Positions 21,376-43,400 of a DNA stretch of 64,000 nt are shown here, piece after piece. The translations under genes and the position numbers were made by a program. Source of the DNA: Negaprion brevirostris. Lineage: Eukaryota. Location: contig JARDVH010000110.1 of NCBI GenBank assembly GCA_030324005.1, forward strand, positions 19,064,603 to 19,128,602, given 5' to 3'. The notes below the pieces were generated by a model that was not told where the DNA came from, did not search any database, and saw only the letters and a program-made list of their open reading frames with translations. Numbering within the stretch: the first letter of the stretch is position 1; each line of letters opens with the position of its first letter.

Positions 21376-22642
21376 GCTAAATGACAATTCACAATTCTCC
21401 CATAATGCATAAATACCATTTCTATTGGATAATCGCATTACATTTGCTTGCTAAAGCCATTTTAGCACTAAAATAAATCACAAATGATGTGCTGCAAAAT
21501 CTTGATCACTTAAGCAGGACTTGATCATAAAATTATGAAACAATATTTTTGAAGTACAACAGATAACAAATTATTCATGTTAAAGCTTCATTCTGTAGCT
21601 ATAAATTGTGAATCGCTGTATATAGTGCATCTATTTTAGTAACATTTCGTATTTATCGAAACTTAAATGCTCAATACAAATCCCCACACTATGAATGCAA
21701 TATTACACATTATGAATGCCCCAAAGGGCAATATGGGGGAAACCAGGGCTCAAATGTGAGGGGAAAACTATTTTTACTGATTCAATCACCATAGAGTACT
21801 TGTGGAACTTATTTGCCAAATTTATTTTAAACACAGATATAGTTGAGCATTATACAACCAGGATGATCAATGCAAAATATAGTTGATATTGGAAATTTGA
21901 AATACAAACAGTTCAGACAAAAGATTATCAACTTGCAGTGCTAATGATTTTCTTTCTGCAGGTGCTGCTGAACCTGCAGGTTATGTCCAACAATTCCTGT
22001 TTTTTAATTCATACAGTCTAACTTCTGGTCTTATCCAAAGGGCAACATCTTCCTAATGCAAGGAAGAGTGTGTTCAGAGCAAGACGACATTGTTCAGCTA
22101 GCCATGCTGCTCCTGCACATTTCCAAGCTGCCTGTTCAAATTAGCATTAGGAGGAAAACAGAAGCAGTTCACTGCACAAAATAATGAGTGCAGCAGCGGA
22201 AAGAAAACAGCAACAATTTCCATTTATATAGCAACATAGTAAAACATTACAAGGAATTTAATCAAAATGTAACCAAGATACCTAAGACATATTATGCCAG
22301 ATGACAAGGCAGGTTTTAAGGAACAGCTTAAAAAGGTACAAAGAAAGGTTTAGGCAGGGAATCCAGAGCTTTGGCCCTTGGCAATGTGCATCAATGAACA
22401 ATTAACAATGCGCCAAAGGCCAAATTGGAGGATTGCGGATATGAGGGGAGTATGGCTGCAGGAGATTATGGAAGGGAGAATCTCCCTCCCCCACATCTTT
22501 GGGCACTAAAGGGCAATTTTGCATGGCTAGTTGACTGAACCTGCACATCTTGTTTCCAAGTCAGAGATGCAAGGATTTAGCACATCATCTAGACTGACCA
22601 GTGCTACGTTGTTGGACATGGATATATACCGAAACAATTTAC

Positions 22643-22695
22643 CTGTCTGCTTCATCCTGTTCTTTCAATAGTTCTTGCACCTTTATGCTGGGTTT
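22643..22695 (-). CDS. MATR3: Matrin-3 exon 11 (KPSIKVQELLKEQDEADR)
   Basis: 53 nt, phase 0-2, gtttcag| ... |gtaaat; links exon 10 to exon 12 in frame. Confidence 0.87.
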
Positions 22696-24688
22696 CTGAA
22701 ACAATAGATTAAACAGGAATTGTTCCAAATTCTGGTCTGCGATAGAAAATTTTGCATGGTTCAACGATGCTTGTCACATCTATAAATGGATTCCAACCCT
22801 ACATGCCTGAGTTACGTAGCCTGACATCTAATTATATGAGAGCACAAGTCAAGCATGCAACAATGAGATTCTCAAGTGAACTTTCCAATTTGTAAAAGAT
22901 GAACTGAGAGAAAAAAAAAACAAGTAAAACAAGATCAGATGAATGTTTCAGGACTACTTTATTTCACATCAAATGAAAATTCAAAAGCAGCAACACTTCC
23001 CTGGTCTACACTGACTTTCTGACTTTCATTTGCTAACTTGAAAAATAATTCTTACTTCTGTGTTTGCTTTCCCTCTGGACCAGCCTAAAGTTTGTTCTCT
23101 CAGTTTTCTAGTTTGACTAACTTACTGCATCTCTCCTTTCAACATTTCTGTTCACAGCTAAAAATCTGCAAAATCACTCCTGCCAACCATAAAGGATAAA
23201 AGACTTCTAACAATGATTGCGAATCTCACCAATTATCAAGGTAATGTGGCAAAACGTGATTTATCCAGACTTTTGAGGAATTCAACATTTTAATTTAACC
23301 TTTAAAAATAGTCATTATTATAGATGACTGCAAGACAAAAAGCTTCAGCACTGTTAACCTTCTTTTGTTCCCCTTAGAGCAGCAATTCTGAACTTTTTTT
23401 TGCCACAGACCATTTAGTCAAGACAAAAGACCCTGCAGGCCACTTATTGGTCCTATGACACTGGTTTTCATTTGCAACCGCAAAACAGGCAACAAAATTA
23501 ATGGGGAGAATGGGCTGCATTTGGTGAGATCCCAATGAGGTGAAATCATGTTTCAAGTTGGAGAACTTCAGTCTCAAGTCAGGCTTCATATTCAGTCAGT
23601 TCATCTCTTTACTTTAACCCCATAACCGCTCAAAATTTAATCTTGCAGTCTGTTGCAACAGAACGTAAATCTTGCTTATAAAACTACATTATTACTTCTC
23701 ATAGAACATAGAACACTACAGCGCAGAACAGGCCCTTCGGCCCACGATGTTGCGCCGACCAACTAAAAAGCAATGACCCTCTAACCTAAACCANNNNNNN
23801 NNNNNNNNNNNNNNNNNNNNNNNNNNNNNNNNNNNNNNNNNNNNNNNNNNNNNNNNNNNNNNNNNNNNNNNNNNNNNNNNNNNNNNNNNNNNNAAGGGTG
23901 CAGAGGAGATTTACCAGAATGTTACCTGGGTTGAAAAGTTTTAATTATGAAGAGAGATTGGATAGACTGAGGTTGCAGAGGAGACTGAGGAGGACATGAT
24001 TCAGATTTATAAAATTATGAGGGGCATCAAAAGAATGGACAGGAAGAAACTTTTTCTCTTGGTGTAGCCATCAATGACATAGATTTAAGTTAAGGGTCTG
24101 TACTCGTTGGAGTTTAGAAGGATGAGGGATCACCTTTTTGAGACGTATAAGATAATGAAAGGGATGGATAGGGTAGAGGTAGAGAGATTCTTCCCACTTA
24201 CAAAGGAAAGCAGGACTAGAGGGCACAGCCTCAAGATAAGGGGGGGGGGGTTGCAGTNNNNNNNNNNNNNNNNNNNNNNNAGACACGGGTAGAGAGGTTT
24301 TTGCCAGGCAAGGGAATTAAGGGCTATGGGGAGAAAGCGGGAACGTGGAACTGATCCACTTCAGATCAGCCATGATCTTGTTGAATGGCGGAGCAGGCTT
24401 GAGGTGCTAGATGGCCTACTCCTGCTCTTATTTCTTATGTTATTTCCTGAAAATCTATATTTACTGCATCCCTTTATCTATCCAGTCATTTCTTCAAATA
24501 ATCTATTAAATTGAGCAAACAAATTTGGCTTAAATCAATTTTCTATGCATTACTAAATGCCCACAAGATTTCTACCTTCTTTCAAATGCATGAATGGAGC
24601 AGTAAACATGAAAGCCATTGTGAAATCAGTCACCAGAAATGGGAAGAAGGTTCAATCCAGAAGGGTCAGGCATAAGTATTTACAATAC

Positions 24689-24882
24689 CTTAATTGTTGT
24701 GTCTCTGTCTTCTTGCCACAGCATCTTAAATTTTTGGAAACGTTCTAGTGCACTGGTGATTGTATCCCTCAATGAGTTGACAGAAGCAGACAGTATCACT
24801 ATTAATTTGGTTACGTCTTTGTGTTCTGCCACGTTGTGATAAAAATTCTTCAGCTGCCTTACACCCTTACTTTCGCTAATTT
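24689..24882 (-). pseudogene. Orphan single exon of an outer-arm axonemal dynein heavy chain (DNAH8-like) inside MATR3 intron 10
   Basis: Translates LKNFYHNVAEHKDVTKLIVILSASVNSLRDTITSALERFQKFKMLWQEDRDTTIK, resembling recalled DNAH8 (NFYPGVAEHKDISKLVLLLSSSVNSLR...FQKYKTLWTEDRD); acceptor ttctcctgcacag, donor AAG|gtattg; 194 nt; no other dynein exons seen. Confidence 0.75.
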
Positions 24883-26223
24883 CTGTGCAGGAGAACAAAG
24901 TTACATACTTAACAGTCACAAAATAGGTTCTTTGCTTGTTTACAGGTAGTTAAATGCTAAATTTTCAAAAAACAGTAATTTTGGGTTTTCTGTCCTGCCA
25001 ATGAAAGTGCAGTTGAACAGAATGAGTGACAGCCAAGTCATAATGTTAGAATTTGTCCAAAACTGTGGGAAAGATCATCTGCATGTCTGGGCAATATATC
25101 ACTGCCTACAAGTGTGATTCAGTGACACTCACTCTGATGACAGAAGGCTGTTTCAGTGACTGGAAGCCACTGGTGTACCACAGGGACCTGTGTTGGATTC
25201 CCTCTTATTCGTCATTCATACAAAGAATGTAGATGACTATGTCGGGGTAGGATTAGTAAGTTTGTAGATAACACAAGGATTAGATGGGTGGTTAACAGTG
25301 AGGCTGACTATCTTGGGCTGCATGAAGATAAAAACAGAATGGTCAAATGGGCAGGTAAGTGGTACATGGAATTTAACCCTGAAACATATGAGCTGATACA
25401 TTTTGGAACATAGAACATAGAACATTACAGTGCAGAACAGGCCCTTCGGCCCACGATGTTGCGCCGACCAACTAAAAAGCAATGACCCTCTAACCTAAAC
25501 CAATCCCTTTCCATCCATAAACCTATCCACGGATCTCTTAAACGCCCCCAAGCTAGGCGCATTTACAACTGCATGGATAAGCACTGTCATAAGACAATTC
25601 ATGCCACATAGATGGGGAACCAGTGATATCACATGAACATTTAGGATGAGAGTTTTAGTCAGCATTCTCACGTGGCTTCAACTCTGATGGTACATATGCT
25701 AATATGCATCTTACACCAACCCACGTTCCACACAGTGTCTTAGAGGAAGGTTATGGACCTCAATATGAGATTTTGACATTAGAAACAGAATTTTCTGTTG
25801 ACAGGAGATTCAGTAATTAGGACCATTGAAAAAAGAACTATAGGGCAGATGATAAGACATTTGCTTTTAGGCAGCCAGTTTTGATATTTGGAGTGTGTGG
25901 AACCACACTAAGTGGAACTACTTAAAGGAAACTGAATATAGCTTCAAAGGAAAAAAACAAAAATAAAGCTATTGAACAAGACATGGGAATGTGACTAATT
26001 TAACAGCCCTTTCAAAGAGCTAGCACAACTACAAATTGCCTCTATCGGTGCGGCACAATACGCGACTGCTTTTGTAAAGGAGACCCATCAGAGTCATTAG
26101 TATTTATTCTATATTACAAAGTAGCTATATGAAACAGATAAGATGGCCTTTGGAACAGTTATGTCAGCTTCTTAATGAAGAAAGTCATAAAAATGCTTAA
26201 TATGCAAGTAAGACATTACTTAC

Positions 26224-26355
26224 CTTTAATACGAGTGTCTTATATTTCTGAGACGCATCCACGGTTACTTTACGACCACGGAATATTAAAGGCGTTTTCT
26301 TGTAGTGTTTAACCATGTCTACCATACATTTCTTTGACTCCATTTCCAGAAATGC
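26224..26355 (-). CDS. MATR3: Matrin-3 exon 10 (RRM2 C-half)
   Basis: AFLEMESKKCMVDMVKHYKKTPLIFRGRKVTVDASQKYKTLVLK; 132 nt; donor AAG|GTAAGT. Confidence 0.95.
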
Positions 26356-26969
26356 CTGATGATTACAATATTGTTACATCAGGAAAAAAATCCATGCAAA
26401 GTTAGCCATAACCATTCACGTTATTAATAGATGTATGCAAATGGTGTATGAAAAGTCTCTCACACCCACCATGTTTCTCCTTCGAGATGAAGAATTACCT
26501 TCTTCACAATATTATTCCTGCCCCCAATGCATGACTAACAACACTGTGGAACTCCAGAGGAGTAGTGATTACAAAATTAGCCATTACTGAGACACTCATC
26601 TCAGATAATAAGCTAAATATTCCTTAGTAATGCTATGCAAATTTGTAGTAATGCTTTTATGGTACGAGGGGCAAAAAGAGTCAAAATGAAATCCCCAATT
26701 TGTACCTACACCTGCCCAGATGTACATAAGCAGAAAACTGAATGATAAAAGAATTTCCGAAGAGGAGATGGGCAAGAGGAAGTTCATGATATATTAATTA
26801 TACTTAATCAAATAGAATGGACTTAATGGGCCCATGAGCCCATTTTAAAAAAGTACTTCTTTTTCATTGCCGTATAAGTTACAAGTGGTAAAGTAAATTT
26901 TCAAACCAGGAATTCCCAGCATACAATTGCGCCCTTATCTCCCTTAAACAAAAATATTTATGATAGAAC

Positions 26970-27113
26970 CTGGTTCCTGAGTCTCATCACAATGTAATTA
27001 AGTACTTTCCCAAAGCTAGTACCAATTTTCACAATATCGGCATCTGAGTAACCAGAAGGAGGGAGATTCTGGAGGAGTGCCACCCTTCCGCCACTCCGTT
27101 CTTGCTTTTGCTT
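26970..27113 (-). CDS. MATR3: Matrin-3 exon 9 (RRM2 N-half)
   Basis: KQKQERSGGRVALLQNLPPSGYSDADIVKIGTSFGKVLNYIVMRLRNQ (cf. human NLPHSGYSD); 144 nt; weak donor CAG|gttcta; not in the ORF track. Confidence 0.92.
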
Positions 27114-27289
27114 CTGAAGAGATAAAAAGACATTACAGACAAAGATTACAATTTAACTGAACTTCTTGTAAAGTACTCTCAAATATATTCCTCACAGAAT
27201 TATTTTTTATAAAAGCTCTTATTCATTCAAAGATATTACAAAGACCAAATACTTGGACTCAGTTACAATTGACATATGCACTCAGTTGA

Positions 27290-30200
27290 TCATAAAATCT
27301 AAGAAAGAAGAGCAGGCCATTTGATCCACTGAATTTGTTCCAGCATTCAATAAAATCAGGACTGATCAGATTGTGGCTTTAACTCTGCTTATCTGCCTGT
27401 CTTCTATAACTCTCTCCCCTTATCAATCAAAATGACTTAGCTAGCTTCCACTCCTCTTTGGGGAAGTGTGTTCCAAGCACTAACCACTCAAAATAAATTC
27501 TTCCTCATCTCAGTTTTGAATGGGAGACTTCTTTTCCTGGAAGTATCTCCTAGTTCTAGATTTCCCCACGAGGAAATATCCTTCTTGTCAAGACCCCTGA
27601 GAACCTTATATGGTCCATTAAGATCACCTCATTCTTCTAGACTCCAGTGAGCATAAACCCAACCTGTTCATCCTTTCTACATAAACCAAACCTGTCATCC
27701 AAGGAATCAGCCTAGTGAACGTTTTCTGAACTGTCCCTAATGCAAAGAAGGAGGCAAAAAACTGCAAAGTACTCCAGGTGCAGTCTTCCCAATACTCTTG
27801 CCAGTTGTAGCAAGACTTCTCCACTTTCATACCCTATCCCCAGGACACAGACCAATATTTCACTTGTCTTCATACATACTTAGTGTATATACTTTCTAAC
27901 TATTCATGATTCATGTATAAGGAAACCCAGATCCATCTGAACCGCAGCATCATTCTATTTAAATTATATTCCATTTTCCTACTTTTCCTATCAAAATGGA
28001 CAAGCTCATTTCCCCATATAGTACTTCACTTGACAATTTTTGTCCACTCATGTAAACTATCTATTTCTTTGCAAATTCTTCATATCTCTTCAAAGTTTGC
28101 TCTCCTTCTGCTCAAAAGTTGGCTAGAATGCAGTCAGGTCCCTTCAGTCATGTCGTAAACACATTGCTTAAGCCTCTAACACTGAACCCTGCATCGCTCA
28201 ACTGGCTATTTTGTCAATTTGAAAATAACTGCTTTCTGAACCCTGTTTCAATGTTTGCCAATCTTCTATCCATGCTAATGCATTAACTCTTAACACCTTG
28301 AGCCTTTTGGAAATCCAAATGCATCACATCTACTGGCTCATTATGCACCATGTTTGTTACATCCTCAAAAATAATAAATTTGTCAGACACAATTTCCTGG
28401 TCACAAAATCATGTTGAATCTGCCTGACTGTATCATGATTTTCTAAATATCACACTGCCACCTCTAACATGGATTGCAGCATTTTAACTAGTGACAGATG
28501 TTGAGATTAAGTGGCCTATAGCTTGCTGTCTCCTATCTTTTTTTGACTAGTGGCATGACATTTATGATTTTCCAATCCTCTGGAACAGCTCCAGAATGTA
28601 GGGAATTTTGGAAGGTTATGGCCAATATAGCCACGTTTTCTGGAGCCACTTTTAAGACCCATGGTTGCAGGCGATCAATCCAGGAGAGTTACCAACCTTT
28701 AATCCCATTAGGTTTTCTAACACTATTTTTCTAGTGATTATGATTGTCTCAAACTCCTCCCCCCTTGCATTCTTTTTGTCATCTACTGTGAAGAGAATCT
28801 CTGCTATTTCCTTGTTTCCCATTAACTCACATTCTAAGGTCTTTAGCTACTCTTTTTAAATCCATTTGCCAAAGCCTTTAGTCTGCTTTTACGTTTCTTG
28901 CTAGTTTCTCTAACTCCAACTTCTCCCATTCTCAGTCATCCTTTGCTTGTTTCTAAAATGTTCACAATCCTTTGGGCTATCACTATATTTGCAACACTGA
29001 ATATTCATCAATTCGACACCATTCTTCACTTTTTTAGTTAGTCCATGGTGATATATCCTTCAGAGTATTTTTCTTTATTTTTTTGCTGGAACGTAGATGC
29101 CATAAGGTTGGCATTTATTCCCCATCCAAATGTCCTTGAGATGATGCTATCATGGCTCATACCCTTTGCAGCATCCAGTTGCACCTGGACTCTAATTGGC
29201 TAAAGATTGGCATCTGAGATCCTGTTTTTCAATGCAATGCATATTTGTTGACATATCTCTTCAAATGTCTGCCACTGCTCCTTTACCATCCCAACTTTCA
29301 ACCTATTTTCCCACTGCACTTTAACCAATGGCTTTTAATTGTAAGGCATTAGTTTCAAAACTAAATTTCTCATCCTCAATCTGAATGTGTTATGATCATT
29401 CTTACTTTGATGAACTCTTATTGCAGTCATTAATCAATTGTGTCTCAATACACATCAGGTTTAAGATAGTCTGCTCCCTGATCGGCTCTTGACATATTGT
29501 TCTGGGAAATTGTCCCGAACAAACCCTACTTTTGCCAATTTGATTCATCCAATTTATAAGTTTAAAAATTCTTACAAGCTAGCATTATTTCTTGATTATA
29601 CTCTGTCCTGTAGTGTAGTTAATATTAGGTGCCCTATAAATTACTCCCACCGTTGACTTCATGCCTTTGCTGTTTTATATGCCCATCCAAACTGACTCTA
29701 TACCTTGAACCAAGATAATTTCTTATTACTGTACTGATGTTATCCTTCTCGAACAGATATATCCCATGTCTTTTTCCCTTTTTATATTTCTAAAATGTCA
29801 AATACACTCAAACATTCAGATATCAGCAATCTTTAATTCTGTCCTTTTACTATTCGCCCCATTCTCTGATATTATTTGCTGGTGCACTTTTTTGTATGTT
29901 CTTCCTGTCACACTCTCATTATCATTACCCAAATCACTATCCTGCTCTACAGCTTTGTCTTTACTCTAACTTTCCAGTCTTCCGTCACATGAACTCTCCC
30001 TCGCAATCCCATCATTGTTTAAAGTCTGTTCTATAATCCTAATCATAGAATTTGCGAGTCAGGTGAAATCCATCCCCAAAATAGTGTTCCCTCTTTCCCC
30101 AGTACTGGTGATAGTTTTAATTTTTGATTAATCGAAACCCATTTTTTTCCATACCAAGCTTTAAGCCGAGCATTCAATTCTCTGATCTTGTTTACCCAAT

Positions 30201-30760
30201 ACCAATTTGTCCCTGGTTCAGATAATAATCTGGAGATGACCTCTGTGGTAAAGAACCTCCTTCATGATCCTACCTATGCTACTGGCACTCAGATGGATCA
30301 CAACCAGATCCTATCCCTACCACTACAAGTCCTTCTCCAAGCCCAAGATGTCATTAACTCTGGCACTGGACAGTAACACAAATCAGGATCTATTCCCCTA
30401 ACTATACTATCAAATACAACTACATTCCTTTTCATTTTGCTCATTTGAATGATCATGATCCATTTGCTCACCCTCTCTATGGCCCCTGCTCTCATCTACA
30501 CATACTGCAAGGGCTGACGATCCTTCATTACTGCCTTTTAGATCCTCTGACCTGTTTCACTTACAGTCACACCTTTCTGTCCTTGACCAAGGGCCCAATC
30601 TGATGCAGCTAGTCTTGGAATATGTCTGCCTCCTGGAACAAAGTATTCAACTGGGCACTAAATGGGCGTTGATAGGCCTTTGTGGTGTACAGCTGAGAAA
30701 AGTATCAATTTTTCTAGGCAAGCCCAGAAAAGTTCACAATAATGCAACAAAGTGGTTGGG
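27290..30760 (-). mobile_element. Long, heavily decayed CR1 LINE (ORF1 esterase remnant to 3' end)
   Basis: DSIVRGID at ~30400, endonuclease/RT-like fragments, VQKTFTRLIP at ~27720, CR1 3'UTR at ~27300. Confidence 0.7.
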
Positions 30761-31025
30761 AGGTCTCCAACCTGAAATCCAAATAATACAATTGCAAGAA
30801 TTAATGAAAGCATCAATGTCATGCTGAAATTTCTGTTTTCAATATTTAGCTTTCAATCACTGTCAGCCAGAGGGAGGAAGGGGAGGAGGGGCAGGGGAAA
30901 ATCAGCATCAATTCACAGAAGGCATTAAGGGTAGAATTTACACCTTTTTTATGCTTTAATGATAGTAAACACTGGGGGAAAAACATATATGAAATACTTA
31001 CTAACAGATTTTCAAGTTTAATTAC

Positions 31026-31157
31026 CTTCAAATCTATCTCCTTGTATTTGTGAGACATATCCACTCGAACCCTCTTGCCATAAAGAGTTGCTGGTTTCAT
31101 ACTGTAAAAGGCGACTGCTGTTTGTGCTTGTGCATTTGTAGCCATTTCCACAAATCC
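31026..31157 (-). CDS. MATR3: Matrin-3 exon 8 (RRM1 C-half)
   Basis: GFVEMATNAQAQTAVAFYSMKPATLYGKRVRVDMSHKYKEIDLK; 132 nt; tttag| ... |gtaatt. Confidence 0.95.
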
Positions 31158-31448
31158 CTAAATTGATTTTTAAAGACAAAGTATATATTTATGACTAACT
31201 ATGCTATCAAAAGTTTATGCTAGAAGTACAACAACAAAAAAAATGCAAACCAAAAGACAGAACAGTGAAATTCTCAAATTAACAGTGAGCAATTCAAAAT
31301 TGTATGCATCTTTAAAAACTAAGCTTTAATACACCTGTGACACAAAATAACCAAGGGTCAGGTTACCATCATCCCTCAGTTACAGCATAATTGGGCTGAA
31401 TTTGGTTTGCTAATTTCTCTTTATAGAAAAGGCATTTATTTTACTCAC

Positions 31449-31583
31449 CTCACTCTTGGTATTTAAAAGTAAATACTTTGTAATGATTCCAAAAGGTTGT
31501 GCAAGTTTGAGGATATCTTTCACTTTGCATTTTCCTTTCGGTAATTCTGTCATATGTAGCACTCGGCCAGGTTCATCCAATGG
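31449..31583 (-). CDS. MATR3: Matrin-3 exon 7 (RRM1 N-half)
   Basis: PLDEPGRVLHMTELPKG...LAQPFGIITKYLLLNTKSE; 135 nt; donor GAG|GTGAGT. Confidence 0.94.
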
Positions 31584-32775
31584 CTTTTCAAAGAAAAACA
31601 ATATAATCGCTTATTTCGTTGGGAAGTAAACTTCATAAATGCATTTTCCCTCAATTCTTAACCTCACTCGGCATGAGAAATGAGAAATAATGCTGTTTTA
31701 ACATAATTTGGCAGCAATAGCTTTTCATTTGAAGATTATTACAAGTATAGAAGAATTTTAAAAGCTTTTTTCATACTTTCCTCTTAAATATTGACATTTG
31801 GCAATGTTAATAGGTTAAAATGGGTGAAATGAAATATATTTGACACCAGGGCACATTCGATTTGTGAGCTCTACAATTCTCAAAACAACTGTCTCATGCT
31901 AATAATGCCAAACCAATTTGCTCAATGTAGCCATTATTAATCTCCTCATGCAGCCTGGTGACTTTCAAGAGAGTTTTAGGACAATACATGAGAACATGAA
32001 CTGTCAAGTGGGTACTATGCCAATAAACTGTTGAGTTTTGACTTTTCCAATGGACCATGGACAAAATACGAAACATTGAACTGCTTAGGGATGAACTTAT
32101 CTAAAATGTCAACAATGCCAGTTTGGGTACTTTGATTACACCTACCTGATAGGGTAGACAAAGAAGTGTTTCCAATTACAGGGAAATCAGAATTAATGCA
32201 AGAAAACTTACTAATCCTTTTAATCCAGAGAATGAAACCCAATTCCAGAATGAGTAGCTGAGGTGAGTGAATAGTACAGATGCATTTAAAGGGAAATGTG
32301 ATAAATTACACAAGGCAGAAAGGAAAGGTAATGTTAGTAGAGGTAAATGAAGGGTGGGTGGAGGTTTGGTGGAACATATACATTGGCATGGACCTGTTAA
32401 GTAAATATTATGGAACAGTAAGATGTGCAAATGTTTGCTTGGATTCTGGGTAATACACAGCAGAAAATAGCATGAAGACATAAATGAACCCACTAACCCA
32501 GAAAAATTCCTGTTTCTCTACCAAAAATGACAAAATTGTTTGTATTTTTAGTCTAAGATTAATATACGCCAAATATATTTAAGCCATGATCTTTGTTTCA
32601 CTGGATGTTCTCACCATCTATGTCTTATTTTAATCTTTTTCATTTTTAAAAACATATCCATAATTTAGTCTCTTGAACTAGAGAAAGTTTCCCCCAACCC
32701 CGCTAATATTGCCTAGAAGACCTGGTAGATATTTTGGCCTGACATTATTCATACTGTAATAAAGCAAAAACTAAC

Positions 32776-32813
32776 CATATTTCGTTTGTTTTGCATTTGA
32801 CCTTTTCTGTTGC
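32776..32813 (-). CDS. MATR3: Matrin-3 exon 6 (GNRKGQMQNKRNM)
   Basis: 38 nt, phase 1-0, tttttcag| ... |gttagt. Confidence 0.82.
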
Positions 32814-33896
32814 CTGAAAAACACAAAACATATCATAAGCTCTGATAAAATACAATTACTTCCATAAAGCAAGGCATTCAATCTTTTATTTTTCAACAGG
32901 AAATTAATTTGAATATAATCTAACACGTAACAGCTAGCACCTCCCATTTTCAAACAATTAATACAGCTCAAGAGTCAGATATCAAAACCAAGGATTCTAG
33001 TCTCAACAAGTGAAGAGGGCACTGAGTAGAGTGCTTACCTCCACCACATTTTGTTAACTCAACATTTACGACAATTACGCAGCTCTTACTCGAGACTTTT
33101 CTCTATCAGACTAAAAATCTGTAACTATGAAGATGAAAAAGGAAATCTTTTTATTTAAAGCTCCATCACACTTTCAGGTAAATCTATATCCAACAACCTT
33201 TTAGTGGTGAAGGTAATAATTCAGCAACATACCAGTATAAAAATAAGGCTGCATTTATACTTTACAATGATATAATATGGTGGAAATAACCGCCTCAAGT
33301 AGCTGCCTTGTCAATAACTTATTAACTCATCCTCAAGAAACCAGCATCGTATTCCTATACGTTTGCACGGAATGCATTAGATATGCAGGGAAATGCCATA
33401 AATTGATCAAATTTTGACAAGGCTCAAATTTGTATAATGAATTTAGGGGGTGAAACTAGAGAGAAAATCATGTTACAGAGTAAACCTGGCAAATTCACCC
33501 GAATTAAAGAGCATACTTTTCAAACATGCCAAGCTCACCAAGCCACATTGGCAACCAAGTCTTTGTTCCAAAGGAAAAACTTGCCTATAACAAACTAAAC
33601 ACTATGGGTTATAAGGAATGGAATGCGCTTTCCATTGGTGGCATTTGGATTGTTTTTTCTTAAAAAAGAGAAAATTATCAGGTACAGTGAGGAAAGCTAT
33701 ATGTGGCAGAGAGTTAATGCTGGGTCAATTCTTCGGCATCTTGACAGCTGCCAGTTTAATATTACTGGTAGATGCTTGGAAGGTTGTTTTAATGTGCAAT
33801 GCAGTGAAACAACTGTGAACAATAAGACAAGCACACACAAGAAATAACAGTTTAATCTGTCATTATAATTAGCAGTCAAAATCATTTTATCCCAAC

Positions 33897-33994
33897 CTCC
33901 ATGAGGATCCAGTGCATCCAACTGTCTGATGGCTGCAAGGAGTGCTGATGCAGCATCTGGAGCAATGTTGGTCTGTCGTGCAGATGGATTGGAC
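33897..33994 (-). CDS. MATR3: Matrin-3 exon 5 (SNPSARQTNIAPDAASALLAAIRQLDALDPHG)
   Basis: 98 nt, phase 2-1, which bridges exons 4 and 6 exactly; acceptor ccgtgtag, donor GAG|gttggg (weak); sequence divergent from the human exon. Confidence 0.75.
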
Positions 33995-34809
33995 CTACAC
34001 GGAGCCCAAAAGAAAAGCAAATTTAATATGCGAGTAGATTCAATTTACCAATTATTACTTGCAACATATCCTTCTCAAAACCATGTATTAGCAATGCAAA
34101 TCAAATTAAGGGTATTTATAGCCATTCAGCAGAACGAGTACATCATCATCTCCAAAGTTGGACAGTCAGAGACTAAGCTGCATGGCAGAAGCAGAGTCTA
34201 CAGCAGGCACCCAGGCCATTTCTCAAGTTATTTTTAAGCTTGGTTTATACATGGTTTTAAATTATCATTTAAGTTCCATGCAAATGGGTAATCTAACAAT
34301 AGAGATCTTTAAAATTATGAGTGTTTTGTTGGAAGGGACACAGAATGCTTACATCAGCATGAAAAAGCATAAAGGTGTTTAATATGATAGACAAAAAAAT
34401 CTAATTGGAAATTCAGAAGTCGAACTTGCTACAACATGGAATGATCAGGATAAATATAGATGCAGTTAAGAGGAGGCTAGATGAGAGAGATAATAATGGA
34501 GTTACAATGATAGATTTAGAGGAGAAGGAGCAGAAATGCTGGCACATGCTGGTTAGGCTAAATGGCCTGCTTCTATGCTACCAATTGGTGCAGATAGTTG
34601 GTGTACAAAAGCTTTTCAATAACAGCAAGCAAGGCAGTGAGTGATCGGCAGGCATCCAAGCATTTTTTTATTCAAAACAATGGCTGAGCTGTGATTGCAT
34701 GTGTACTGAGCATGCCATTTGTAGTTGCAGTAGCAGCAAACAACCTTTTATTACTACGGTGCCCTTGGAAGAAAACATACTTTTGTGGTAAGAGGAAAGA
34801 AAACTGCAG

Positions 34810-35570
34810 CCACTTCAATATTTTAATAACACATGGAATGACCTCTTCAATGACCTCCTGATGTAATGACAACATTTCTTCAATGTCAACAAAACAAAGG
34901 AGATATTCATCGATTGCAGGAAGCGTAATGGAGGACATGCCCCTGTCTACATCAATGGCGACGAAGTGGAAATGGTTGAGAGCTTCAAGTATTTCAGTGT
35001 CCAGATCACCAACCTATCCTGGCCCATTCATGCCGATGCTATTGTTAAGGAAGCTCACCAATGCCTCTACTTTCTCAGAAGACTCTGGAAATTTGGCATG
35101 TCGACTACAACTCTTACCAACCCTCACAGCTTGGTATGGCTTCTGCTCTGTCCAAGAACACAAGAAACTACAAAGGGTCGTGAATGAAGCCCAGTCCATC
35201 ACTCAAGCCAACCTTCCACCCACTGACACTGTCTACACTTCCTCCTGTCTCAGAAAAGCAGCCAGCATAATTAAGGAACCCATGCACCCAGAACACACAC
35301 TCTTCCACCTTCTTCCATCAGGAAACAGATACAAAAGTCTGGGGACACGTACCAATCGACTCAAGAACAGCTTCTTCCCTCCTACCAGACTTTTGAATGG
35401 ACCTACCTTGCATTAAATTGATCTTTCTCTACACCCTACCTATGGCCATACAAATATATTCTGCACTCTCTTCTTTCCTTCTCTATGTATGGTATGCTTT
35501 GTCTACAGAGCGCAAGAAACAATATTTTTCAATGTATACTAATGCATGTGACAATAAGCCAAATCAAAGA
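34810..35570 (+). mobile_element. Rex-Babar-type LINE 3' fragment
   Basis: VESFKY...KEAHQCLYFLRRL; TAWYG..S...KKLQRVV..A..I...HP.H.LF.LLPSG.RY....RT.RLKNSFFP. Confidence 0.8.
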
Positions 35571-35614
35571 CTTAGCCTAATTACCAACTATTACTAGAAG
35601 TAGCTTGATTTTAC

Positions 35615-35653
35615 CTTGTGGATGGTACATCCTCTGGAACCCATTGTGGGTAA
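35615..35653 (-). CDS. MATR3: Matrin-3 exon 4 (YPQWVPEDVPST)
   Basis: 39 nt, phase 2-2, tttctag| ... |gtaaaa; YPxW motif as in human YPEWNP. Confidence 0.9.
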
Positions 35654-35789
35654 CTAGAAATAAAAATAAGAACTTGTTACACACACAATACCAATATCCA
35701 CCATTCCATTTACAATGATCAATAATGAAAATACACACAAGTCCAAAGAACTGTATCCATTTCTTGGGATTTCAGGTTGAATATTATTT

Positions 35790-36089
35790 CATAGAATCCC
35801 TTCAGTGCATGGGGAGGCTATTTGGCCCATCAAATCTGCACTGACCTCAACCCCACCCAGCCCCTATCCCTGTCACCCCACATATTCCTCCTGACATTAA
35901 GGGGCAATTTACCATGGCCAATCAGCCAAACTCGCACATCTTTGGATTGTGGGAGGAAACCAGAGCACCCAAAGGAAACCTATGCAGACACAAGCAGGAT
36001 GGACAAACTCCACACAGACAGTGATCCAAGCCGGGAATCAAACCAAGGTCCCTGGCGCTGTGAGACAGCAGTGCTAATCACTGTGCCAT
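35790..36089 (-). mobile_element. V-SINE (HE1-like)
   Basis: Head, B box and V core on the minus strand. Confidence 0.8.
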
Positions 36090-37397
36090 CCCTATATACA
36101 AAACTGACTTGCCATCCCGATATACAAAACTGACTATAATGATTATAAAAATCTTGTGTTGTTGTATTTGGAGCAAATTCTTGTAAATCCCAAAACATCC
36201 TGGAGGTTGACCAAAAATTTAACTGGACTAGCCATATAAATATTGTGGTTAGGTGAGCAGGTCCGAGGCTGGGTATTTTGTGGTGACCAATTCACTTCCT
36301 GACTTCCCAACTTCCCAAAGCCTGTCTAACACCTATAAGAACAAGTCAAGTGCATAATGGAATACTTGCCTCATTTATCTGGGTAGCTGCGGCTCCAACA
36401 ATACTCAAAAAGCTTGCCACCATACAGGACAAAGTAGCTTGTTTGATTAGCACCTGACCACCCCCGTAAACAGTCCCTCCCTCCACCATCAGTTACCATG
36501 GTTGCAAAGCATACTGTCCCCTCCAGCAACATGCAAAGACTTCTTCAAAGCCTCTTCAATTTAAAAGGAAAAGGACCAGGAATGCACGGAAACATCACCT
36601 CCAATTTCCCCACCATCCTGGTTCAGAAATTTTATGCTACTGCATTGTTCTTGCTGGGTCAAAACTTGAGGACTCTTCAACGAATAGCATTGTCAGGAAT
36701 ATCAACTGCAATGGTTCAAAAATGCAGTTCATCACCTTCTCAAGGGCAATAAATACTGGCCTTGTCTAACAAAGTTCACATCTTGTGAATTAAAGAAAAT
36801 AGAAAAGTGCTATTTTTAAGCATCACATATAAAGGAGTTATAATAGCTCAGAATCATTCATACTTGAAACATTAGCTCTGTTCTCTCTCTATAGATGTTG
36901 TTGGACCCGCTGAAATTTTCCAGTATTTTCTGTTTTTAAGTATAATAGCCATTGGAATGAAACTGATAATGGCTCTGATTTGCAATTCTCTTTCTTGAGC
37001 TGCTAGATAAAGCTAAGAAAGGCACAGCTGGAGACCAGGAACTGGCTCTCATCCTTTCAAAAAAGGGGACATTATTCTTTCATCACTTGACATCTGGGCA
37101 ACTAGTTGAAAATTATGACAAACATATTCCCCTCCAGTTCCATTTCCCATTACCAACAAAAAGTTCTTTCTCAATTTATTCAATGTATCTAACAGTAACA
37201 TTTCCAATATGCTCATGTAATTAAAGCTATTAAAATGAAATTAGACTTTCCAAAGGAAATCAAAATGAAAATTGTCAAATATTCTTACATTCAATATTGC
37301 ATGTACTACTACTCACATATCCTACATAAACTTGGGATCCAATTTAAAAACAATTTTAAGCTAATCTTTTCATAGCAAATTGAGAAGAACTGCATAC

Positions 37398-37459
37398 ATT
37401 TCCAAAAGCAGCAAGCAACGCCGTTTATGTGCTGGTTCGTTTTTATGCTGGTTCCAATC
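37398..37459 (-). CDS. MATR3: Matrin-3 exon 3 (DWNQHKNEPAHKRRCLLLLEI; completes C2H2 ZnF1)
   Basis: 62 nt, ttattcag| ... |gtatgc; completes C-x2-C-x12-H-x5-H. Confidence 0.95.
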
Positions 37460-40400
37460 CTGAATAAGGGAAAACAAAATCACAATAAATTTTACATTTA
37501 TGCTAAAATCATATTGTGCTATTTGTACAACAGTTGCAAATCTTTACCAGTATAGTAAGAAGCAAAGATACTGTATGATATAGAAAATAACTGAATGAAT
37601 GCCCAGCAACAATGCTGGAGGAAATATTGGTTTATAAATGTCTTTTAAATCTCAGGATTAAGTCAGAACCTGTTATTTAATAATATACACTGTGTATGAT
37701 TAATCTGAATATTTAGCTATACTTCCTCATTCTGAGCATGTAGTTCAATCTCCGTATACCACAATTAAAGAAGCAAACACTCAGCCACTGTCTTTTTTAA
37801 CAGTTTGTATTACACTGGTCATATATTCTTCCCTGTTTTGTTTGTATCCTCCATAAATACCCCAATACTTTTGAGAGGATAAAACTAGTAGTTGTAACAT
37901 TTACATTGTTCCTTGATTAGCAAAATCTAGCTACATTACTCAATGACTTAATTTAATCTAGGCCATACAATTGTTTTATCGTCCCTGAAACTATACAATC
38001 TTGAACTAAAAATGCATTATCATGTCATGGCATGGGAGAGAATACAATTACTACTTTTGGCTAATGCCTATCCTATAACAAAATATATCTAAGACCCAAT
38101 TAACTAAGCTGTAGGGCCAGGAAGTATAAGGTTCAAACAGTTTGTTGAACTTACAGATGCATAGTGTATTGGAATCAGTTTCCACAATCCAAGCCTGTGA
38201 TAATCAACCATAAGTACAATCCCAATTATCATCCAATCAGCCTGCTGGAATTGCACAGGTGAATTTTGAGGAAGAGTATTATTGGTCTCTACCTTAATGC
38301 TGCTTATGGTCAAATAGCCAGACGTCACTCACCATTATATGCCAAGAATAGAGGAAAATAACCTGGCCAGAGACTGAGGAGCTGTACCCAAATTAGAAGT
38401 TAAGGCCTTCAGGAAGGATACGACAACATAAAACCAGCAGGGAATCAAGGATAAAGAAAGAATATCTGAGGACCTTTCCACTCAATGCTAATGACATCAG
38501 CCCAGAATCAATGTAATATCTGTATTGACCTCAAACTAACATTACAATTGTTTAACCAGTTGAACATCTGCAAAACAATGTCCAATAATAGCAATGGAAT
38601 ACCAGCAGCAAAAATCATTCACCATGCTAATTTTACTTTGGATTTATGCAAATCCACAAATATGCTATTCTTCGTAACCTTACCAACAGCAAGACTGTCA
38701 CAAATGCAACATCTTGCTGAGGTGATGGGGTGGGGAAAGAAGGTGCTTATTGGATAAACCAAAAATGGATATGTACAAATGTGGACAAAGTGGGGTTGCC
38801 ATAATGGACACCATTAAGCCAAACAGAACAGTTTGTACTACCTTTAAAATGAGTTTCAGCAATTTTCTGCATAATGCTCATTCTGATCTGAAACATCACC
38901 CTCTAAATAAACTATTGATCTAAAGCTGGATGTGCTATTTGAATCCTCAACATTTCCCCCACCAAATTTTTCCTTGAGGCTGAAAGGATGTAAAACCCAT
39001 TAATAGGCAAGCACATTCTGTTTATAAGAGAAAAGGTTGCACAAGTAAAATCTTGAGCTTTCTTAATGCAAAAGAAAATTTTCTAAGACTTCAAGCCTAA
39101 TTTCTGAAGTTGACAGCACCAGATAAATCATTTTCTTGCAATATGAAGCAACCCCTTTGAATACTGCAAGTGAATGAACTGTCCTTGTCAAACATGACCA
39201 GTTTCCTATTTAAAAAAAATAGATCTATCAGAATCAGAAAAAACTGAGTTGAAGTGTCTGGTGAGATCCACAGTGCAACTACATTGTACCATAACATTAA
39301 GGAACAGGCTTTATGTATTAGCGGACTCTTTCCTGTCCTTTATCTTTGAATTTTTGGAACTAGGGATGAAGGAGCACACTTCCAAAGTTGGGGAAAGTTG
39401 CAAATCCATTCCATACAGATTACCCAGCGCCTCAAGTGTGTTCTATCATTTTATTAGCTCACAAACATCAAATTGTGTATCAGCTAATGTACATTTGATC
39501 CAAAACTCTCAATTCCCTAACCCAAAAAAAAAATCACCTTTCAGAAACAAAAAACAGCTCAGTATCTGTTCGGCTTAGTACCACACTACATGGCATATTT
39601 AACCTTTGGGGACACTGGAAGATTACACCTGTGTAACAGCTGTAGTTTTACTGGGCATTGACATCGACTGAATCCTTTTATAAAAAAACAGCCAATCAAT
39701 TGAAACATGTACAGGACCAGAGTAAAGTGGAATAAGACTAAAACCCATATACGAGGTGGATGTTTTTTCCTCCCTAAAAAGAGGAAAACCAGTTGTACAC
39801 TCCCAAGCAGATAGAATTAGGGGGAAGAAAAGGGGACAATAAACTCAAAGCAGTCAGTATGAGCGAATTATTCAGCTTTTGGTGGCTCGTAATCTATATA
39901 TGGAGTCTGGACAAATAATACCATTTTGTGCAACTGCAACTAACTCAGGCAAGGCAACTATCAGCTTTTCCATGCTTACTTTTAAATTAAAACCATACTG
40001 TCCATGGCTGTGACTCATTCTCCATTGCTTTTTTCTGACTATTTCTAACTAGAATTCTCTCATCCGCTGCAGCTTTCAATCTCCTCCTGTGTTCAATTCC
40101 TCACCAACTAAGTTGTCATTTATCAAATGACTATTCATCTTTTAACATTCTAGCAACTTATGGCGTACTGTTTATTTTCCTCTCCAAAATCTCCCTCTAA
40201 CTTTGAAATCCCAGGATGAAAGGAAAACCACATACACAGCATACATTATGTAAATAACCAGATTTCCTGAAAACAATTAAAAAGTAACAAAAGAAATAAT
40301 CACTATCCTAAACATGGTGTTTTCCGTGACAAGTAGATTTTTAATTATTTGTGGGACAGATATTTAATATCACAAGGAATCAAATATAAATTGTGTGATC

Positions 40401-43400
40401 TTATAAAACTTAAGTATTACTCACCCCAAATGCAGTCAACTTCATTCTTCAAATGAAGTTTTCCCTCCATACGGCTGNNNNNNNNNNNNNNNNNNCACAT
40501 GGTAAATTTATTTTGCCAATCACGTCATCTCATTAAGGGACTTCCATGTTTAGAGACCACCCTGATGCAAACTCACTGTTTTCCCATATGTTGACTGAAG
40601 ATACTTCAAACACATAAAGCAGGACTCTTAAGCTCAACCATTTTCTTTGTGAAAGGAACGCGGCAGACACGTAGTAGCCTGCTACAACGTTGATTCATGT
40701 GAAGAAAAGAACTGAATATATATTTCATAACCTATACATTCTACCAGTTTCCTTGTCTATATACCCCAAGATAGCTCAAACTGTGGATCTCAAAAAGGAA
40801 GAGAATGAGGGGGCTCACCTTTCAATGATAGCAGGGATTCTAATACTCTATCAGTTCAGATGTTCTTAGAAGCTAAATACAGTGTGTGGATTATTGTACT
40901 TGATGCACTAATATTCTAAAATGATACTGTCCCAAAATTAAGACCACCTCAACTGGAAATATTTGAATTAATATTGGTGGAAAGTGTCTATGTTTAAATC
41001 ACTGAATTTCAGTGTGCTTCCTGACACTGAAGCATTGCAACAAGAAAATCTACACCCTTGAACTGATATTTCTAAAGGAGTGCCATATTTTTACTCCCAA
41101 CTGTCAAACAATTTGTCAGTTATTTTAAAATTATAGTGCTTTAGTTAACAAAAATTCACTAGGTTTGTGAATACCACATTGATCAGCAGGAATGTGATGG
41201 AGAATAGAGAACTCGAAGGCAACATAAGACAGGAAAAAAAATTTAGATACCAGTATATACCAGTTCCATTTTCCAAGGATCATGGTATCAGGAGTGAAAA
41301 AATTATCCATTTATCTCCAGCCAGAGACTGAGAGAGAATGATTCTTGAGAACATTTTTCAAATGTATTCATGGACATCACTGGCTAGGCCAGGATTTGTT
41401 GCCCACCCCTAATTGCCTTGCTTTCTTCAAAGCTGCAGTCCATGTAGTGCAGATACACCCACAGTGCTCTGCTCAACTTGTCCAGGAGATTTTACCCTCG
41501 AGTTGAAGTATTTATTTTAAAAGCCAGATTTGAAAATGATTACAGTCTGTTTTTAGCCATCAGACTCAACATTTTTCTAGTGAGTTTTGCAAATTACCAC
41601 GTACTAATCAATAATCTTAGTTTATTCCCAGAACAAAATGATCACATTTTTAAAATGTGTCCTTGGCTTTTGCATTCCTTTTCCCTTTTCTCTCATTTGT
41701 TGTTATAATTGTCCTTTACCAGGTTATCTTTTTCCTCTCATTTTAGTTGCTCGTATAATACATCTCCCTGCTGTTTTTGCTTCATCACCTTCTCATCTTT
41801 GATATTTCCCAAGTCTTTGAGCTGAATGCCAAATTCACCAATTTTTTGAAGAAATTTGTCATGTTTCAACAAACTTAAGTCAATTTTATAATGTTAAAAT
41901 TATTCTGAACATGCAAAACTAATCTACATACCAGCAAATATTCTTGGGGATGTGGGTGCAAATAAATTCAATCATCTCTCTCAACGGGTTCAGATGTGGC
42001 AAAGATAAATCGTATTGCAGTGGCATCTGGGACAGTTTTTAAGTTTTTAGTACTCTGAACAGGTCAGATGGCTTTAAATTTCTTCACTTCTACATAGCAA
42101 AGGCCTTTCAGAAGAATTCAACCACTGGCATGGAGCAAAACAGGCAGCTTTGCTCCTTGGTAGACTTGATTCCACTTTTCTTAAGTCTGAATACAGGTCA
42201 ACTATCCCATGCAGAACTGAGTACTTTCTTTAGTTGGGCAATGAATTTAAGAAATCCAAAATTTATTTTAGAAATCAGAGTTTAACTGGCAAAAAGTGTT
42301 AAACTACTGCAAGACCAGTACAGTTTCATGTTGGACAATTTCCAGAGTGCTGCACTACATAAAAAAGTAAATTACACGTCTACATCACAACCAATGAATT
42401 ACTTTCACTGTTACACAGACAAATACAGCAGCCATTTTCAAACTAAGGTCTTATAAACAAGCATGACAAATGCTTTAATGACCTCTGATGAAGGAAAAGG
42501 ACTGGACAGACCACTGGAACTCCTGAAACAGCCACGATAGAAAAGGTCTTAGATCCATCAGAGCTGTGATTTTGGTTTTAACATTTTACCCAATGACAAT
42601 GCAGCATTCGTCAATATAGCAGTGCCGAGAGCCCAGTTATTGAAGCAAGGACTTCGAAGGCAGGAGTGGTACCAATGAAGACAAGATTCAAAGCCAAACA
42701 CAGTTTTACAGGATGCTTAGTCAGTTCATGGAATTTGTTAGTCTTCAAAGTTAAGGTGTGTTAGAGAGACAGACCAAGTAAGAATGAGCGAGAGAAAAAG
42801 ATGCAATACTGTAGTTTTGAGTCAGAACCTTGCACCCTCAGCTAACATCAATGTGGTATGCAATGGTGCAAACCTAGAGGTGGATATATGTTTGTATTAA
42901 TTTCTCAATCACAGCAGGTGAATATGCCTTGATCAAGTCATTTATGGGGCCTCAAGAGTTTTTCAGGGGGAAAATTATATTCAAAACGACTGTCTGATTA
43001 TTTAATTCATCTTTCACTTAATTCAGACCACAAAACTTGCCAGCTTTCTACTAAGATAATGATTCTTTTCAAAGCTTTTTGAAAACCGCACTGATATTAT
43101 CTAGAGCTCAGTCCCAGATAATAATGCCTATGGCAACTTTAAACTCTTTCTTGATATGGCAATCTGGTCAGTGGGTAGAGCTCAGTTAAAAAAATAAGGT
43201 CAACCTCTATGGTTAATCCTCTCCAACGAATCTTTGCATACACAGAATAAGTCCTGTGCTTTTTGAAAGTTTGCTATCCATTCCAGAGAGAACAGCAAAA
43301 GAAAGAAAATCTATGAAATGACAATTCGGCATTTCTGGATGTCAGTATACCATTAAATATCAAAACGTCAAAATCCAAAAGATAGCTTCACATACCAAGT

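Follow-up and report, generated by a model that had tools for sequence, protein, structure and literature searches.

A DNAH8-like dynein exon in a MATR3 intron is most likely misplaced through a young repeat during assembly

The dynein exon that lies in a MATR3 intron of the window, by which we mean the whole 64,000-nucleotide stretch analysed here (C110:19,064,603–19,128,602), is most likely an assembly error and not a real feature of that gene. With a probability of about 95%, the exon belongs to a DNAH8-like gene on scaffold C25, hereafter copy B, and the contig that carries it was joined to MATR3 intron DNA by way of a young repeat 165 nt long. We read the exon as misplaced because copy B lacks it and because the MATR3 intron of relatives is empty. 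A preliminary description of this DNA had offered, as a caution, that a chimeric contig might have been joined through the repeat, and the hole at the native locus together with the empty site in relatives now supports that alternative. The letters of the exon and of the repeat are present in the assembly; their arrangement is most likely absent from the animal.

The exon itself is as it was first described. Its 194 nt are confirmed in the assembly letters, with a good acceptor (...ctgcacag), a donor (AAG/gtattg) and no stops in a frame that runs from phase 1 to phase 0. The dynein identity proposed for its peptide is likewise supported by comparison with PDB chains, where the best match is 9fqr_I3 (4730 aa) with an E of 6e-18, against 6e-8 for human DNAH5 (PDB 8j07, chain 8j07_n0). 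The peptide aligns to approximately residues 1100–1260, in the tail of outer-arm dynein heavy chains, and the exon two downstream in the dynein gene gives the same ranking (4e-29 for 9fqr_I3 and 1e-14 for DNAH5). We take 9fqr_I3 to be DNAH8 from its length and from DNAH8 being the sperm form; the chain is labelled 'CFAP57' in the table of matches. The entry to which it belongs is described as a bovine sperm doublet model (PDB 9fqr). As judged from the PDB matches of these two exons, and provided that this naming of the chain holds, the gene is nearer to the outer-arm chain of sperm than it is to DNAH5. No second dynein exon was found within the 64-kb window. Pfam returned no family for the dynein exon, the large MATR3 exon or two LINE-like pieces (four of five proteins were blank), and Rfam gave 0 matches across the window.

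The exon is part of a foreign block bracketed by copies of the repeat (Table 1). Besides the exon and its own intron flanks, the block holds LINE-like fragments at 23894–24445 and 25130–25408, which are presumably of class CR1. The preliminary description had reported a 94-bp repeat on both sides, and a direct repeat of that length is indeed present (23700–23793 and 25409–25502, 98% identical), but the right copy is actually 165 nt long. The 165-nt repeat is abundant: across 388,344 non-N bases blastn gave 27 hits, of which 17 reach an identity of at least 90%. The left copy ends at a gap of 100 N, as had been noted, and the block contains a second gap of 23 N at 24258–24280. From 24281 to 40477 the assembly is free of N, so that the right-hand join is ungapped.

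Table 1. Features of the MATR3 intron and its surroundings (positions within the window)
Feature	Position	Strand	Details or basis
Matrin-3-like RRM exon (exon 10 of the preliminary description)	26355–26224	minus	132 nt, ends in phase 0
Young repeat, 165 nt, likely chimeric; inferred misjoin point	25409–25573	minus	Repeat comparison and run contigs
Foreign block: dynein exon, own intron flanks, LINE-like fragments	23894–25408	no strand	Absent in the intron of X4, X5 and X12
Coding exon of DNAH8-like copy B, most likely misplaced in the window	24882–24689	minus	194 nt
Scaffold gap, 100 N	23794–23893	no strand	Window letters
Young repeat, left copy, truncated by the gap; probably the genuine MATR3-intron insertion	23700–23793	minus	X1 flank contig
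Candidate following MATR3 exon	22695–22643	minus	53 nt, phase 0 to 2, one of two splice-motif-scan candidates

When the genome was searched with the exon as protein, three matches were returned: besides the exon, a paralogue at C25:3,806,751 (68%) and another on C132 (39%). The C25 match sits as an ordinary exon in a dynein gene that we call copy A, and it was also the only other match in a DNA search of the genome with unique DNA, at 78% identity. Copy B was found 1.1 Mb beyond copy A by a search with the neighbouring exons of copy A. Its upstream exon lies at C25:4,899,951–4,900,089 (search match at 4,899,939, 71%) and the exon two downstream at C25:4,941,929 (search match at 4,941,934, 82%). 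A 4624-aa dynein gave 24 tblastn hits, collinear on the plus strand, across 380 kb of copy B. Residues 1069–1200 of that dynein are missing from copy B by tblastn. The interval in which the exon would be expected (4,900,089–4,941,929) comprises 41,839 bases, of which 20,812 are N, including two large sized gaps (7,211 and 9,608), and neither the exon nor its unique flank DNA has a match within it. It had been suggested to check whether the DNAH8 locus lacks this exon; copy B does, and at a gapped place. The exon is therefore not the orphan it was taken for, as there is a DNAH8-like gene on C25 without precisely that exon. The paralogue of the next exon is also not on C25 and is found at C154:40,583,620–40,583,748 (81%). 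This displaced exon lies near a scaffold end, and 8 kb from it a copy of the young repeat begins at a gap of 100 N.

The two displaced exons fit copy B in order, phase and divergence. The upstream exon of copy B closes in phase 1; the window exon opens in phase 1 and closes in phase 0, the C154 exon does the reverse, and copy B resumes in phase 1 with its next exon. When the four exons are joined they give 232 codons with 0 stops and AG/GT at every border, and 175 of the 232 residues are identical to copy A. The dS to copy A is 0.70 for the window exon and 0.69 for the C154 exon, compared with 0.52–1.15 for six resident exon pairs of copies B and A. The dN/dS of the window exon, at 0.28, is the highest of the eight pairs, the others having values of 0.04–0.19, yet it too is far below 1.

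We examined eight sequencing runs out of 24 listed, and compared four of them (X1, X4, X5 and X12) over 22000–27200. In three of the four, from three studies, the site in the MATR3 intron is empty: single contigs (X4 record 16, X5 record 24 and X12 record 10) join 23699–23702 straight to 25572–25590, without the repeat and without the exon. X4, X5 and X12 differ from the window by ~1.5–3.5% and share alleles among themselves, and we therefore treat them as relatives and not as the assembled animal. The direct join across the block, named in advance as the mark of an artefact, is thus seen in relatives only. Although X12 carries the same organism label (A) as X1, its divergence from the window is ~1.6–3.4% and it has alleles in common with organisms B and C. 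The absence of the 165-nt repeat at 23699/25572 from three relatives makes it a lineage-specific presence/absence marker.

The exon region was found on a separate contig in X1, X4 and X5, and X12, with zero cover over the exon, gives no evidence on it. The depth of this contig is 8.7 against 9.05 for the flanks in X4 and 14.2 against 11.9 in X5, and X5 record 29 departs from the window at 25408, the start of the repeat, its next 15 letters being dissimilar to the repeat. In the unique pieces X1 is identical to the window. On each side the flank contigs of X1 enter the repeat by 27 nt (on the left to 23726) and end there, so that this run reaches across neither join. The depth of the X1 exon contig is 6.27, compared with 6.5–7.2 for the flanks. 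What X1 supports is a repeat inserted once at the empty site and an exon present once, the latter by contig depth, which gauges copy number only weakly. At 24714 the window and X1 share an amino-acid change, L to Q by manual reading, that is confined to these two. The exon with its flanks is also present in X13 and X17, two DNA runs that are more distant. X17 also has a 400-nt contig whose loose ends resemble the flanks of copy A, and so both paralogues appear to be shared. The differences in X13 (2/194 in the exon and 19/487 in the flanks, Fisher p 0.052) are borderline and were not counted.

The best interpretation of these results is that two insertions of one repeat family were confused during assembly. 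A 165-nt insertion at 23699/25572 would have occurred in the MATR3 intron of the assembled animal, and another at 25408, next to the dynein exon, both in the lineage of that animal only; the two mismatches between the repeat copies of the window would fit two separate insertions. Short reads would have been unable to span the repeat, so that a contig could cross from one copy to the other, probably at ~25435–25545, and scaffolding would have placed the true left flank alongside with a 100-N gap. The repeat at 25409–25573 is accordingly likely to be chimeric, its left part coming from the copy in the dynein intron and its right part from the copy in MATR3. MATR3 would then splice normally, with no poison exon.

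Repeat-induced misjoins are known from short-read assemblies, and three of the four features of an ordinary one that we tested were found here: a host site that is contiguous without the block (in three of the four runs, relatives only), a native locus that is gapped and lacks the block, and the agreement of the exon with its native gene. The likeness extends to a foreign block bounded by young, abundant repeat copies and a fixed 100-N gap, and to a sized-gap hole at the native locus combined with an empty site in relatives. There is no substantial difference, except that here the adjacent exon, too, has ended up elsewhere, on a third scaffold. Several observations speak against a misjoin. In the data from the assembled animal we saw neither a read nor a contig that connects 23793 with 25503 or links the exon with C25. 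The join on the right is ungapped, and the exon has the highest dN/dS of its set and one private amino-acid change. In addition, the gap edges of the C25 hole match the block only through repeats at 88–92%, with no high-identity overlap, and holes are common on C25 (162,257 N of 380,000).

The main alternative is that ectopic recombination between young copies of the repeat really did copy or move the exon into the MATR3 intron, as a recent event in this animal or its lineage, where it could act as a new, lineage-private poison exon of an essential RNA-binding gene. We regard this as very unlikely, even though two repeat copies in the same direction bracket the block, the right join is gapless, the exon retains both of its splice sites, and neither join is spanned by data from the assembled animal. 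If the exon had been copied, its depth should be 1.5–2 times that of its surroundings, whereas we observed ~0.9, again by a weak measure. If it had been moved, a conserved gene would have lost an exon, and the C154 exon would need a second move. The large sized gaps in the native interval are, moreover, what would be expected if contigs had been placed elsewhere.

The host gene and the reading of the splice were both described correctly. The RRM exon upstream, which we take to be exon 10 by human numbering, is nearest to Matrin-3 among its paralogues in PDB (Matrin-3 3e-6, RBM20 1e-3, ZNF638 0.03), an assignment made from this one exon. Joining this exon to the dynein exon reproduces the predicted K-L-A-K-V-R-V-stop, a reading that would count in favour of a real recombination. 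Poison exons occur in RNA-binding protein genes, and the dynein exon resembles them in bringing a stop 7 codons in, if it is spliced after the RRM exon. It differs from them in being absent from the MATR3 intron of relatives. Two features expected of a captured poison exon were looked for and not found: the exon is not in the host intron of other animals or relatives, and there is no extra copy beside an intact donor, as the genome has one copy and the donor is holed. Two runs guessed to be RNA from other organisms (X19 and X21) have 0 contigs over the dynein exon and give no evidence either way. The proposal that MATR3 had captured a ready-made poison exon is unsupported, the intron of relatives being empty. 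An old capture, fixed in the MATR3 intron and since diverged from DNAH8, is scarcely credible: the sole other copy in the genome, 78% identical in DNA, looks old by itself, but 78% is the distance between copies A and B, copy B lacks the exon, three of the four runs refute such a capture with empty introns in relatives diverged by 1.5–3.5%, and dN/dS is below 1 in the dynein frame, not in the poison frame.

C25 carries two full-length DNAH8-like genes in tandem on the plus strand, at ~3.5–4.41 and 4.59–5.37 Mb. DHC_N1 hits lie at 3.54–3.63 and 4.59–4.76 Mb and Dynein_C hits at 4.38–4.41 and 5.36–5.37 Mb, so that the layout from DHC_N1 to Dynein_C is present in both copies, by exon order in a subset of exons. 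Compared with the DNAH8 and DNAH5 chains, the difference here is that one genome holds two tandem DNAH8-like copies. They are ~67–95% identical per exon, and the duplication is old. Three more DNAH5-type heavy-chain genes, at C132:46.4–46.7 Mb, C132:94.8–95.0 Mb and C193:43.4–43.6 Mb, are 40–49% identical to the tested C25 exon, which brings the genes of the DNAH5/DNAH8 group to five in all. Single DHC_N1 and Dynein_C exons at C13714:1208–1393 and C79104:135–362, apparently small contigs, may be further unplaced dynein exons. The neighbourhood of DNAH8 presumably includes GLO1; a search for PF00903 (glyoxalase), which short exons may escape, gave one hit, on C143. The portion of PMC8312260 consulted gives only the mammalian GLP1R–DNAH8 neighbourhood. 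In the part of PMC8455134 that we covered, dynein gene families with shifted sizes and an enrichment of 'dynein complex' are reported for cartilaginous fishes, with DNAH8 unnamed; its Supplementary files 13–14 may list dynein family sizes. A tandem duplication of DNAH8 or of any dynein in cartilaginous fish was not found in the literature searched, supplements excluded.

These results indicate that the assembly shifts exon-bearing contigs between scaffolds through the young 165-nt repeat, and calls of an 'orphan exon', of exon loss or of a pseudogene therefore need checking here. Copy B itself would receive a truncated annotation. For dynein evolution, the tandem pair of full-length DNAH8-like genes is modestly relevant, their dN/dS being far below 1.
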